Source: Bacteroidia bacterium (lineage in GTDB: Bacteria > Bacteroidota > Bacteroidia > UBA4408). Taken from it: DNA of 51,044 nt. Numbering within the stretch: the stretch's first letter is position 1; every line of letters begins with the position of its first letter. The stretch is taken from contig JALRAS010000005.1 in assembly GCA_023262495.1 (NCBI GenBank), positions 3,672 to 54,715 on the forward strand, in the 5' to 3' direction. The notes beneath the pieces were generated by a model, which did no database searches, had not been told where the DNA came from, and worked only from the letters and a program-made list of their open reading frames with translations. This document shows, piece after piece, positions 8,381-11,673 of the stretch. Both the position numbers and the translations under genes were made by a program.

Positions 8381-8408
8381 GTGGTTGGAGTAAACTCCAA
8401 CCACTTTT
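8381..8408 (+). terminator. Intrinsic terminator after the acyl-CoA dehydrogenase gene
   Basis: GTGGTTGGAG-TAAA-CTCCAACCAC, a perfect 10-bp stem followed by TTTT. Confidence 0.75.
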
Positions 8409-8484: not shown

Positions 8485-8895
8485 TTATTGTAACATCAGG
8501 AGTAATGTTGATGCTCTTAATTGACCAAAAATAATGGCCTTTTGATTAAATGCGATCCCACATGCGATTGCGTCCTCCTTACTAATATCAATGATCAATA
8601 ATGACATTTCGTTGGGCCAGCCTTTTGTTCCTTCTCCATAACCCAAAACAAATTTATATCCTCGAGTTTCTACGTAGTTGATGAGTTGCTTATGACGCAG
8701 TTCGTTTTGCTCTGCCGTTAACAATTCAGAGAGAGGATTATAGGCGGTTATAAAGGCGTATGTTGTGCAGTTGTTTTCAATTAACAAATGGTCAAGTTTC
8801 TCATTTTTTTTACCCACTTGTATCACTATATCTTCAACAATATACCTTGTCTTTGCATAAGCTGATTTGAGCTCTCGGTTTTTATGTGTATACAT
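8485..8895 (-). CDS. DUF3293-family protein; putative SAM lyase-like fold
   Basis: AY..T.Y N-terminus, FITAYNP, N..RH..L, G.G...W..E.S and A...G..FNQ.AI motifs typical of DUF3293. The SAM-lyase link is inference. Confidence 0.75.
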   Translation of the reverse strand: MYTHKNRELKSAYAKTRYIVEDIVIQVGKKNEKLDHLLIENNCTTYAFITAYNPLSELLTAEQNELRHKQLINYVETRGYKFVLGYGEGTKGWPNEMSLLIIDISKEDAIACGIAFNQKAIIFGQLRASTLLLMLQ

Positions 8896-8938
8896 ATTAT
8901 ACCTTAACTTATGATTAATTAATACTTGATTTTGGCTA

Positions 8939-10078
8939 TTATTTCAACAATTGTAATTGCCCAATAACAAGCGCATCAATAATTTCCCAGGGCACATTAG
9001 CTTTTCCAAAATGTCCGTAGGCAGCTGTGCCAATGTAAATAGGTGCTTTTAACCCTAAGGTGCGTATGATACCCTGAGGTGTTAAATCAAACAGTGATTG
9101 AATGGCTTCCTCTATTTTTGATTCATCAATAACTCCTGTTTCATGCGTATTTACATATAAACTTGTTGGTTCCGCTTTTCCTATGGCGTATGACAGCTGA
9201 ATAGTGCACCGAGTGGCAAGGCCTGCCTCAACAATATGTTTGGCAACATATCTTGCTGCATAGGCGGCTGAGCGGTCAACCTTACTCGGATCCTTTCCGC
9301 TAAAAGCACCACCTCCATGCGGGCACGAACCACCATAAGTGTCAACAATAATTTTACGACCTGTAAGGCCTGTATCGCCATGCGGACCTCCAATTGTGAA
9401 GCTACCAGAAGGATTAATCATAATCACCGGATTGCCTTTCAGATCATAAGAACTAATCACCGGATGAATAATTTGCTCGGTAACAAATTTGCTTAATGCA
9501 GCCTGTGAAATGTGTTTCACATGTTGTGTAGACAATACAATGTTTTCGATGGCAACAGGTATATTGTTTTCATACCTGATGGTTACCTGTGATTTGGCAT
9601 CAGGCAATAGTACAGAGTCTTCTTGCATTCTTACTTCCCTTTGTTTTTCCATCAGTTGATGCGCTATCATAATGGGCATAGGCATTAGCGCAGGCGTTTC
9701 TCTACAGGCATAGCCAAACATTATTCCTTGATCACCTGCGCCACCATCGATAACACTGCTGTTAATTTCCGGACTTTGTTCGTGTAGTAAATTGATGTAA
9801 GCGGCATCTGCTTCACTGAATCCAGTAGCACTATCAGTGTAACCAATTTCTTTAATCACTGCTCTTGCTATGGCAATGGCATCAACATGTACTTTTGAGG
9901 TTACTTCACCGGCAATCACCAATTGTCCTGTTGTAATGAGGCATTCGCAGGCTACTTTGGCTTCGGGGTCTTGTGCTAAATAGGCATCTAAAATGGCATC
10001 AGAAATTTGATCGGCTACTTTATCGGGATGTCCGTTTGATACCGATTCGCTTGTAAATTGAAATGTTTTTGTTTTCAT
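8939..10078 (-). CDS. metK: S-adenosylmethionine synthetase (methionine adenosyltransferase), possibly an accessory paralog
   Basis: FTSESV.GHPDK, GAGDQG, GDTGLTGRKIIVDTYG and GGGAFSGKDPSKVDRS motifs. Likely start is ATG 10078 (MKTKTFQFTSES); the alternative is 10108. Confidence 0.97.
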   Translation of the reverse strand: MKTKTFQFTSESVSNGHPDKVADQISDAILDAYLAQDPEAKVACECLITTGQLVIAGEVTSKVHVDAIAIARAVIKEIGYTDSATGFSEADAAYINLLHEQSPEINSSVIDGGAGDQGIMFGYACRETPALMPMPIMIAHQLMEKQREVRMQEDSVLLPDAKSQVTIRYENNIPVAIENIVLSTQHVKHISQAALSKFVTEQIIHPVISSYDLKGNPVIMINPSGSFTIGGPHGDTGLTGRKIIVDTYGGSCPHGGGAFSGKDPSKVDRSAAYAARYVAKHIVEAGLATRCTIQLSYAIGKAEPTSLYVNTHETGVIDESKIEEAIQSLFDLTPQGIIRTLGLKAPIYIGTAAYGHFGKANVPWEIIDALVIGQLQLLK

Positions 10079-10120
10079 GTGTATTGTTTTTAAGTTTTTA
10101 CAATACATCAGTAATGGGAT

Positions 10121-10218
10121 GGCAACATGTTATTTTGACGAAATGTCCGCATCTAACTGCCACCGTGGAGTTGCTACTCTCGGTTGGCACCTTTGCCTAG
10201 GCAAAAGATTCCTGATGT
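10121..10218 (-). promoter_or_regulatory. SAM-I/IV-variant-type riboswitch (copy 1, directly upstream of metK)
   Basis: Minus strand: P1 CATC/GATG; P2 TTTGCC-TA-GGCAAA; P3 TGCCAACCG...CGGTGGCA with the SAM-I-clan asymmetric bulge; P5 GAC/GTC; L3 GCAAC can pair with 3' tail GTTGC (pseudoknot). Confidence 0.8.
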
Positions 10219-10280
10219 AATCAATAAATTAAATGGTTGATTAAGTAATATTTGTTTTAAATTTCATGTGAGTCATTTGG

Positions 10281-10679
10281 TTATACCCTGTAAATGTCGG
10301 CTTCATTTCTTTTGAATCCGGCTAGCACTGTGGACCTGTCATCAGGGCTTTTCATCACAACTTCAAAAAACTTACATGATTTAGGAAGCGCACCAAAAAT
10401 GAGTATAAATGTATGCGTTTTATCAATGGGTAGCAAAGTGCCATTAGGCCAAAAAGTAATGTTTTCGGCATGCAGTAACTTGCTTTTAGGAGAACCCTCA
10501 TCGGTAATTAAATAGGTATTGGGGGTAATGCAGATGTGAAAATCTTTGACATCTGTGATGAGTTCAATGATGACGGTTACCTGCGACTCTCTTAAGGGAA
10601 ATTTGTTGGGGTGTATTTCCATTTTGAGAATCGGCTTTTTTGCCGGTGTTGAATGAGAGGAATTAGATTGACTGTTCAT
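10281..10679 (-). CDS. Conserved hypothetical protein (beta-rich, Bacteroidota-type)
   Basis: 132-aa ORF with SKLLHAENIT, F.LIF..LPK.C..F and RN..DIY motifs, resembling an uncharacterised Bacteroidota family from memory; 6-nt gap to the upstream ORF. Confidence 0.7.
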   Translation of the reverse strand: MNSQSNSSHSTPAKKPILKMEIHPNKFPLRESQVTVIIELITDVKDFHICITPNTYLITDEGSPKSKLLHAENITFWPNGTLLPIDKTHTFILIFGALPKSCKFFEVVMKSPDDRSTVLAGFKRNEADIYRV

Positions 10680-10685
10680 AATTGA

Positions 10686-11036
10686 TTAATTATTTTCAGA
10701 GGTTTGTAAATCTTCTTCCTTCACACATGTCTCTGTTTTCTGTTTTTTGCTCGTTGCTATGTTACTTTTTCGTGCCCTGCTTTTTTCCGATTGAAGATCG
10801 AGCTTTATAAAGCGCCACCTGTAAAATGCAGGCTCCTGAAACTCATAATAACTGAGTCTTGGATTTACAATTTCTTCAAGCTGACATGATTCCGTTGGTA
10901 AAGCTCTAACAGTGTAAACCTTCATGGCCTCAGGAAATTTCATGAACTCGGCATACGCATTATTTTTAAGTACCTCCGAGAAGTCATCATTAATACATAA
11001 GATTTTATCACCTATTTTAAAATTAGGAATTTTCAT
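10686..11036 (-). CDS. Hypothetical protein, SH3/KOW-like small domain of a type common in phages
   Basis: FKIGDKILCINDD...P....VYTVR....LEEIVNP.....F..WRF pattern; AT-rich translation start region. Confidence 0.65.
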   Translation of the reverse strand: MKIPNFKIGDKILCINDDFSEVLKNNAYAEFMKFPEAMKVYTVRALPTESCQLEEIVNPRLSYYEFQEPAFYRWRFIKLDLQSEKSRARKSNIATSKKQKTETCVKEEDLQTSENN

Positions 11037-11233
11037 TGTTATTAAATTTTAGTTAGTAATTATTTGATTTGAAAAAGATGCTCAATAGGTTATGAGCCCG
11101 TGGTGCAAATCAGCAATTTCAGCTGTAATTTGTAACCAAATAACAGGATAACGGATCAACCGTAATGAAAATTAAAATAGTGTTTCATACAACAATTTTT
11201 GTTGCATGCAGGAGTAAAATAAAGTAGGGTAAA

Positions 11234-11333
11234 CTGAACTAATTTTGGCAGTGTGCCCGCATTATTTTTACCACCGTGGTGTTCAACTCGGTTGGCAGTA
11301 GCTCCTTTTTAGGGGAAGCAACTTCTGAATGCA
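11234..11333 (-). promoter_or_regulatory. SAM-I/IV-variant-type riboswitch (copy 2, leader of the unit)
   Basis: Minus strand: P1 GCATT/AATGC; P2 GCTTC...GGAGC; P3 TGCCAACCG...CGGTGGTA; P5 GGCA-CAC-TGCC; L3 TGAAC can pair with 3' tail GTTCA. Covaries with copy 1. Confidence 0.75.
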
Positions 11334-11378
11334 TGGTTAATATTTAGAGAACTTTTTTCGAAATTTCTTTCGATGGCA

Positions 11379-11411
11379 CAAATGTAATTGAAAGAAATTT
11401 AATTAAGCAAA
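11379..11411 (-). promoter_or_regulatory. Bacteroidota -33/-7 promoter (TTTG-N21-TACATTTG) driving the riboswitch/metK unit
   Basis: caaa at 11408-11411 and caaatgta at 11379-11386 on the + strand, with a 21-nt spacer, about 45 nt before riboswitch copy 2. Confidence 0.65.
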
Positions 11412-11673
11412 TAAGATTGAAAAAATTAACAAAAAATGATGAGCGTAGATAAATAGCTGCTTCCCAACCGCGAATATTAACTACAATTATTTTGTGAATG
11501 AATGACTTAATTTTTGAGCTTAGATTAATGAAAGTTAAACATAGCAATTAAGAATGGCTTATAGAAATAAGATTTGCTAGTATTCATGTTAACTTGTCTT
11601 CACTCGAATTGATACAATTGTAAACAATTATTCGCTACCTTTATTTTCCATAAAAAATACACGCACCATTAAT

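Follow-up and report, generated by a model that had tools for sequence, protein, structure and literature searches.

A gene for S-adenosylmethionine (SAM) synthetase that lies downstream of two riboswitches of the same class, 1.1 kb apart, raises the question of whether both of them act on it. Such a gene, here called metK2, is carried by the minus strand of a 51,044-nucleotide (nt) stretch of a Bacteroidia bacterium of the UBA4408 lineage (assembly GCA_023262495.1, contig JALRAS010000005.1, positions 3,672 to 54,715). This whole stretch is referred to below as the window, and its positions are those used throughout. A first-pass annotation made from the sequence had described two diverged SAM-I/IV-type riboswitches and had proposed that metK may be gated twice in one transcript; copy 1 is the one next to metK2, and copy 2 lies further upstream. 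The explanation that we favour, with a confidence slightly better than even, is a dispensable one-operon cassette of ~2.9 kb in which each riboswitch is a SAM-OFF switch, copy 1 acting on translation and copy 2 gating the leader. The analysis shows the identity of the aptamers, their covariation, the alternative pairings, the accessory status of the gene and the mobility of the block, while the OFF logic, the co-transcription and the physiological role are the parts of this explanation that we infer.

Both elements are SAM-I/IV riboswitches. Indeed, an Rfam scan of window positions 9900-11600 matched each of them, on the minus strand, to RF01725 over model positions 1-99 of 99 and above the gathering score of 41.1 bits, while the remaining three match rows of that scan fall far under their own gathering scores and are chance matches. 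The two aptamers are:

11337..11231, minus strand, copy 2 SAM-I/IV aptamer (RF01725, 49.6 bits, E 1.1e-06)
10223..10121, minus strand, copy 1 SAM-I/IV aptamer (RF01725, 47.2 bits, E 3.8e-06)

A gathering-score scan of the entire window returned copy 2 alone, copy 1 being dropped by the default filters. A search of the whole genome returned the two of them and, from another contig, a third, and no RF01725 match was found in 14 control genomes. The covariance-model check for which the first-pass annotation had called thus confirms the type that it had given to the two elements. The strings that it had quoted are all found, on the minus strand, and the compensatory differences that it had described are real. 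They concern P1, the proposed pseudoknot between L3 and the 3' tail, and P4 (which it had termed P5), the latter reading GAC/GTC in copy 1 and GGCA/TGCC in copy 2:

10217..10214 with 10153..10150, minus strand, copy 1 P1 strands (CATC/GATG)
11332..11328 with 11263..11259, minus strand, copy 2 P1 strands (GCATT/AATGC)
10174..10170 with 10126..10122, minus strand, copy 1 pseudoknot, L3 GCAAC with tail GTTGC
11285..11281 with 11239..11235, minus strand, copy 2 pseudoknot, L3 TGAAC with tail GTTCA

In each copy, five bases of L3 are complementary to the tail, and the two pseudoknots differ by paired changes. Among 11 distinct sequences, the pairing of a loop with its own tail scored 5.0 on average (5.0-5.5 for the two window copies) versus 3.9 for 106 cross pairs, with overlapping values and therefore a weak separation; by eye, the loop of each window copy still forms 4 base pairs (bp) with the tail of the other. 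The helices separate more clearly. A covariance model built on 13 aptamers, drawn from this genome and from relatives, gave 33 matches (32 distinct), whose alignment is fitted to that model and hence biased towards the structure; in it, P1, P3 and P4 hold standard pairs in 92.5% of cells versus 23-54% when the partners are slid by 1-3 columns, 9 of the 18 pairs show two-sided changes, and the covariation score was reached by none of 500 shuffles. A MAFFT-based pairing count on the 13 sequences gave 91.0%. Together with the covariance-model matches, this helix covariation backs the earlier suggestion that both aptamers are under structural selection.

The two copies keep the invariant columns that the 13-sequence alignment shows in the conserved SAM-I-like core (CCAACCGRG ... 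ACGGUGG ... AUGNGR). According to the Infernal alignment, P2 is a perfect 7-bp hairpin in copy 1 (CTTTTGC-CTAG-GCAAAGG) and a longer hairpin with one U-U mismatch in copy 2, neither having the internal loop (k-turn) of SAM-I and SAM-IV. The absence of this loop from P2 is a feature of the SAM-I/IV (SAM-I-IV-variant) class (Weinberg et al. 2010, PMC2864571), and the window copies also share with the class the conserved P3/junction core, the simple P2, the position of P4 3' of P1 and the complementarity between L3 and tail. No difference from the class thus appears in the aptamers, which are ordinary members of it; what differs is the context, copy 1 being internal to a gene cluster and the target being an accessory metK paralogue.

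Decay of either copy, or of both, into a relic that has lost SAM binding appears very improbable. This idea draws on the P1 of copy 1, which in this genome has just 4 bp, with an A-C mismatch at the outer pair flagged by Infernal. However, each copy matches the full model with a score that exceeds the curated threshold, both retain every invariant core column, and both are conserved with compensatory changes across genomes of the genus in which ORF132, a protein encoded between them, is just 50% identical. Copy 1 shows 86-87% identity to its counterparts in two of these genomes (G001 and G003). Copy 2 is 94-96% identical in the sister genomes, and its nearest relative outside the genus (77%) is the metK2-proximal copy of a more distant genome, G143.

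The minus-strand order of the locus is promoter, 5' hairpin, copy 2, ORF116, ORF132, copy 1, metK2 and a DUF3293 gene. Besides the aptamers, its elements are the following (aa, amino acids):

11443..8519, minus strand, accessory cassette block from the promoter to the DUF3293 gene, a single blastn block
11408..11411, minus strand, TTTG, candidate -33 element read from the sequence, 21 nt upstream of the -7 box
11386..11379, minus strand, TACATTTG, exact Bacteroidota-type -7 box
11372..11359, minus strand, hairpin CGAAA-GAAA-TTTCG at the 5' end predicted for the transcript, read from the sequence and of putative function
11036..10686, minus strand, ORF116, 116 aa, family without name
10679..10281, minus strand, ORF132, 132 aa, small beta-sandwich protein
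10078..8939, minus strand, metK2, start ATG 10078, 379 aa, three Pfam MetK domains (E 1e-39 to 1e-65)
8895..8485, minus strand, DUF3293 gene, final gene of the cassette (PF11697, E 2.6e-17)

The -33 role of TTTG is one that we presume from the Bacteroidota promoter consensus. The 5' hairpin reads CAAAA...TTTTG in the sister genomes, with A:T in place of G:C, both partners of the pair being different. A leader of ~195 nt leads from copy 2 to ORF116. An ATG at 10108 is in frame with metK2, and the frame that it opens is not kept in G001. The same gene order is found in the same-genus genomes G001 and G003, including the DUF3293 gene behind metK2, and in G002 as far as its contig reaches. As the two riboswitches are separated by two conserved open reading frames (ORFs, of 116 and 132 codons' worth of protein), the arrangement is not a tandem leader.

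How could copy 1, the closer of the two, control metK2? Three segments of its leader are concerned:

10219..10212, minus strand, P1 5' strand TACATCAG
10111..10104, minus strand, CTGATGTA, perfect complement of the P1 5' strand and proposed anti-sequestor partner
10107..10080, minus strand, sequestor hairpin TGTATTGT...ACAATACA, separated by 1 nt from the metK2 start codon

The P1 strand and its complement match over 8 nt by Watson-Crick pairs, a length that shuffling of the downstream leader equalled only 5 times in 1000. This complement shares bases with the 5' arm of the hairpin next to the start codon. The hairpin itself folds at -5.8 kcal/mol (z -2.7), and in G001 and G003 its inner pair is A:T instead of T:A, so that the pairing is kept. 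In the unconstrained minimum-energy fold of the window leader, the long-range helix forms and leaves the metK2 start open. Unconstrained folds reach -37.5 kcal/mol in the window, -35.7 in G001 and -36.2 in G003, versus -32.6, -34.9 and -35.7 kcal/mol, respectively, when P1 and the hairpin are forced, all these energies excluding the contributions of the ligand and of the pseudoknot. The two states are therefore near in energy, which fits what a switch requires. The same design recurs with other sequences in the independent metK2 leaders of G162 (GTCATCAA/TTGATGAC, 8 nt, 11/1000 shuffles) and G237 (TTGCATTTA/TAAATGCAA, 9 nt, 8/1000) and in the proximal switch of G143 (TGCATTCA/TGAATGCA, 8 nt, 19/1000).

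Copy 1 thus looks like a SAM-OFF translational switch for metK2, as far as can be read from its sequence. Translation initiation in Bacteroidota generally relies on an unstructured leader and not on a Shine-Dalgarno site. In the absence of SAM, the P1 5' strand UACAUCAG would pair with the downstream CUGAUGUA and the start region would remain open. In its presence, P1 and the pseudoknot would form, and the freed segment would close the hairpin one base before the AUG, blocking initiation.

Copy 2 is followed by a different platform. The ~100 nt located 3' of its aptamer are conserved in four genomes of the genus and divergent beyond, so that the conserved platform ends ~100 nt upstream of ORF116. 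It includes:

11208..11186, minus strand, 10-bp hairpin CATGCAACAA-AAA-TTGTTGTATG, kept in the four genomes of the genus
11188..11156, minus strand, 10-codon mini-ORF (MKHYFNFHYG, stop) whose ATG coincides with the final three bases of the hairpin's 3' arm

A 66-nt stretch of the platform folds at -14.1 kcal/mol (z -2.9), and a homologous hairpin follows the copy-2-like proximal aptamer of G143. Genus-level conservation stops at the stop codon of the mini-ORF. Furthermore, a frame of 10 codons occupies the corresponding position in G143 (locus L121, about 2725-2693, minus strand) and also ends in Tyr-Gly-stop, with two synonymous differences. This frame could encode a leader peptide or could be a coincidence of constraints acting on the RNA. 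A conserved peptide was considered and rejected, the third genomic copy of the riboswitch having an ATG buried in a hairpin but a 41-codon frame, in another register over the shared AUUACG motif. In the minimum-energy folds of copy 2, the aptamer core CCAACCG pairs with a downstream CGGTTGA, a pairing that G143 does not keep, having one mismatch there by eye. In a pattern scan of metagenomes for copy-2-type platforms, which returned 21 loci, the same platform was found in one locus alone (L126), near-identical to the window.

In the explanation that we favour, copy 2 would gate the leader of the whole unit through this ~100-nt platform, in which a hairpin buries an AUG. As the hairpin lies ~150 nt before ORF116, it cannot directly mask the ORF116 start codon, and the output step may be attenuation, translation of the leader ORF coupled to termination, or RNA decay. 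The position of the platform, which stops well short of ORF116, and the recurrence in a distant relative of the 10-codon frame with its hairpin-buried AUG could alternatively mean that copy 2 mainly yields a short leader RNA or peptide terminated in a SAM-dependent way, with little effect downstream. We regard this as improbable: the terminator scans gave no canonical call at the conserved hairpin, and the same module stands directly before metK2 in G143, which fits a control in cis.

If the cassette is co-transcribed, ORF116 and ORF132 would be gated once and metK2 twice in series, and this double gating would make the shut-off of the spare synthetase steeper and tighter. Is there a single transcript? 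TAnnTTTG is the promoter box of this genome: among 141 divergent gaps, 52-58% hold an exact copy on the sense strand, and among 76 convergent gaps, 8-14% do. The box at 11386..11379 is the sole exact one on the minus strand between 8657 and 12629. It stands exactly 50 nt before copy 2 in the window and in G001, G002 and G003. Between the two copies, exact boxes are absent from the window and from G001, and the one found in G003 is non-conserved and lies inside ORF132. A terminator scan found no terminator-like site between ORF132 and copy 1. The inheritance and relocation of the whole unit (11443..8519) together were counted towards one operon, and the recurrence in G143 of a double control of this metK type was counted for serial gating. 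Judging from these features, the cassette is probably one operon, and the odds lean a little towards a metK2 gated twice in series on one transcript.

Several observations weigh against this reading, in addition to the short P1 of copy 1. A 242-nt metatranscriptome contig matches 10523-10764 with 0 differences and bridges the ORF116/ORF132 junction, which speaks for an operon, yet the RNA data are contigs of one run, which cannot show transcript ends, and three of the four contigs of this run at the locus are 32-36-nt fragments of the metK of other organisms. The exact box marks about half of the promoters, and its absence before copy 1 is therefore weak evidence; moreover, one-mismatch boxes occur inside ORF132, and a non-canonical promoter before copy 1 is possible. 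The metK2 leader of G063 has just 6 contiguous bases complementary to its P1 strand, a run equalled in 269/1000 shuffles. At copy 2, the platform hairpin persists in the minimum-energy folds of both states. A candidate anti-sequestor for copy 2 (CATGCA/TGCATG) was rejected as a 6-nt complement of its P1 strand that 312/1000 shuffles equal and that is energetically unfavoured. Copy 2 was also rejected as a terminator switch: terminator scans called no canonical terminator at its platform hairpin or at the G143 homologue, the lone terminator-like site of the window leader (11097..11080) is not conserved in the sister genomes, and the G143 leader has none.

The promoter data also leave room for an arrangement in two units, in which copy 2 would serve ORF116 and ORF132 and copy 1, with its own non-canonical promoter or processing site, would serve metK2 and the DUF3293 gene. 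We hold this to be a serious contender, although clearly on the less probable side. About 45% of the promoter-bearing gaps of this genome have no exact TAnnTTTG; the 57-nt spacer between ORF132 and copy 1 holds a conserved CATTTAATT segment; in all four other metK2 lineages, a riboswitch precedes the gene and itself directly follows a promoter-like box; and the two copies, only ~58% identical, belong to different sub-lineages, as expected of units that were joined. Nevertheless, no exact box and no conserved near-consensus one lies in the spacer, read-through from upstream would reach copy 1 in the absence of a terminator-like site after ORF132, and the unit has been conserved and moved in its entirety, as one block. 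The interpretation given in the first-pass annotation therefore stands as regards the SAM-I/IV type, the structural selection and the lack of a canonical box before copy 1. Its double gating on a single transcript, on the other hand, is only plausible. The annotation had mentioned neither the minus strand, nor the two ORFs that lie between the copies, nor the accessory nature of this metK.

What kind of gene is controlled in this way? Comparison of the genomes indicates that metK2 is an accessory, dispensable second SAM synthetase gene. Its 379-aa product is 54% identical to that of the other metK of the genome (~430 aa, contig C88), and a metK of this ~427-430-aa type is present in this genome (G000) as well as in G001 and G003. 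A ~427-431-aa metK was the sole type returned from G002 and from G004-G007, the cassette contig of G002 ending before the position of metK2. Near the long metK, no Rfam riboswitch was found at E<=0.01 in 5 loci. Among 300 other class members examined, just 4 genomes, from three families, carry the short type (62-69% identity), always behind a SAM-I/IV riboswitch.

The cassette behaves as a mobile block in comparisons within the genus. The window and the G001 and G003 loci share the block 11443..8519 at 74% identity, and outside it no similarity was found in the loci compared. The block lies 5' of an aminotransferase gene in the window and 3' of an aminotransferase gene in G001 and G003, while G004-G006 keep the aminotransferase-panB-permease genes without it. 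Beyond the last gene of the cassette, the DUF3293 gene converges with an acyl-CoA dehydrogenase gene, and these two genes probably share a terminator, which the simple terminator scan did not call: at 8381-8404 of the window, a 10-bp hairpin (GTGGTTGGAG-TTTA-CTCCAACCAC) lies between them, with a run rich in T after it.

ORF116 has no Pfam, NCBIfam or PHROG match and is rare: among 300 other genomes of the class, 4 have it. Its relatives nevertheless keep the company of metK: in G237, a homologue directly follows metK2 (43% identity, E 5e-21), and in G120 another abuts the stop codon of a long metK controlled by a SAM-I/IV riboswitch. The family thus accompanies riboswitch-controlled metK genes in three lineages. 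Co-folding of ORF116 residues 1-82 with two MetK2 chains gave a score of 0.61, the best of 3 controls reaching 0.31. ORF116 with MetK2 passes this controlled test, whose pass mark 116 of 157 solved complexes and 2 of 215 mismatched pairs attain, a calibration that is only approximate here as the run used its own alignments and three chains. The co-folding runs share at least 77% of their contacts, with a partner pLDDT (predicted local distance difference test) of at least 78, and the predicted contacts bring ORF116 residues 59-67 against both MetK2 subunits at the dimer interface. ORF116 is therefore predicted, from these models, to bind the MetK2 dimer. The AlphaFold model of ORF116 alone (pLDDT 51.7) is too poor for a structure search. 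Protein language-model look-alikes of ORF116 are phage hypothetical proteins; however, a tblastn search of 50,697 phage records gave nothing at E<=0.001, and PHROGs gave no match.

ORF132 belongs to an unnamed family that is widespread in Bacteroidota (656 cluster representatives at E<=0.001) and has no Pfam match. Its AlphaFold model is a beta-sandwich (pLDDT 80.1) whose structural matches are only generic Ig-like ones, with a top Z of 5.8. General membership of this family in a SAM regulon was rejected, a SAM-I/IV riboswitch being located nearby at 1 of 40 family loci elsewhere with Rfam and at 1 of 80 with our own model.

Eukaryotes possess a SAM synthetase associated with a small regulatory subunit, MAT2A-MAT2B. 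The position predicted for ORF116 at the MetK2 dimer interface recalls this pair by analogy only, being known here from a docking model. A more elaborate scheme, which we consider unlikely, would make the cassette a two-threshold SAM-starvation module, a kind of split tandem, in which copy 2 opens the operon at moderately low SAM and so allows ORF116 and ORF132 to be produced, copy 1, as a further lock on translation, frees MetK2 at deeper depletion only, and ORF116 is a small, hitherto unrecognised regulatory partner docking at the interface of the MetK dimer. If it were true, ORF116 would be a bacterial counterpart, by analogy, of the SAM-synthetase regulatory subunit.

How does this locus compare with known double riboswitches? 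Tandem riboswitches for the same ligand have been described as 'pseudo-cooperative' and 'bi-mechanism' arrangements by Sherlock et al. 2022 (PMC9481103), a study which counts 164 double SAM-I, 44 double SAM-II, 149 SAM-II/SAM-V and 7+2 SAM-II with SAM-I/IV and expects switches in series to sharpen the response. As in those tandems, two complete switches for one ligand precede one gene here, the second being a putative translational one. Unlike the adjacent tandems of that account, the two are separated by 1.0 kb and two coding genes, and the upstream genes would see one switch. The anti-sequestor/sequestor pair is the putative expression platform of copy 1, and the conserved ~100 nt are the candidate one of copy 2. 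The consulted passages of PMC9481103 name no homotypic SAM-I/IV pair, and a literature search returned no direct report of a homotypic SAM-I/IV tandem or of such an operon-internal riboswitch, although the supplements of Weinberg 2010 and Sherlock 2022 may list cases. What we regard as new here is the split riboswitch pair inside an accessory metK2 cassette, together with the link between ORF116 and MetK.

The closest arrangement found among relatives is that of G143 (locus L121), in which two SAM-I/IV aptamers (49.7 and 60.9 bits) directly precede a metK2 whose product is 68% identical to that of the window. Its proximal aptamer, with its hairpin and mini-ORF platform, resembles copy 2. The two aptamers of G143 are, by contrast, only 61 nt apart with no intervening gene, and the copy-2-like module, distal in the window, is the proximal one there. 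Same-strand SAM-I/IV pairs among 151 genomes of the class were also found in G136, 1.3 kb apart, and in G120, 4.2 kb apart. The G136 pair (locus L151, G136:C47:126400-130900) flanks an IS200-like (Y1_Tnp) gene and precedes an AAA_5/MoxR-like ATPase gene, in a cluster unrelated to metK. In another locus (L010, G024:C161), a degenerate aptamer-like stretch with a CCAACCGAG core and without the ACGGTGG partner lies ~150 nt 3' of a SAM-I/IV aptamer and, from its sequence, may be a decayed tandem copy.

The third riboswitch of this genome (G000:C263:3627-3718, locus L003 1501-1592, 43.1 bits) lies directly behind an exact TATATTTG box and is followed by a ~390-nt leader, then by a gene for a 138-aa protein of a family without name. 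In the third riboswitch locus of G003, a homologue of this protein (E 3e-23) is followed by a paralogue of ORF132 and by a gene of the N-formylglutamate amidohydrolase family (PF05013). A relationship between ORF132 and the 138-aa protein itself was rejected, their match (E 0.018 over 17 residues) being no real similarity. Small proteins also recur in other metK neighbourhoods. The loci L121 (1168-1446, minus strand) and L147 (1829-2086, plus strand) carry, after a riboswitch-controlled metK, members of a family of ~85-92 aa with the motif KLGIVGVHQQAL, which spans two families of the class, has no Pfam match and was grouped by similarity judged by eye. A Cys-rich protein of 77-89 aa, also without Pfam match, recurs by eye in L147 and L024.

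Globally, the ORF116 family is a candidate MetK-binding protein family, a proposal that comes from the models and is directly testable. If a single transcript covers the cassette, some genes of the operon would be subject to one switch and others to two, a graded control within an operon that the consulted passages on tandem riboswitches in PMC9481103 do not describe. For the bacterium itself, the contrast between a rare metK2 located behind SAM-I/IV riboswitches and a housekeeping metK at which no known riboswitch was found points to a backup enzyme for SAM starvation.

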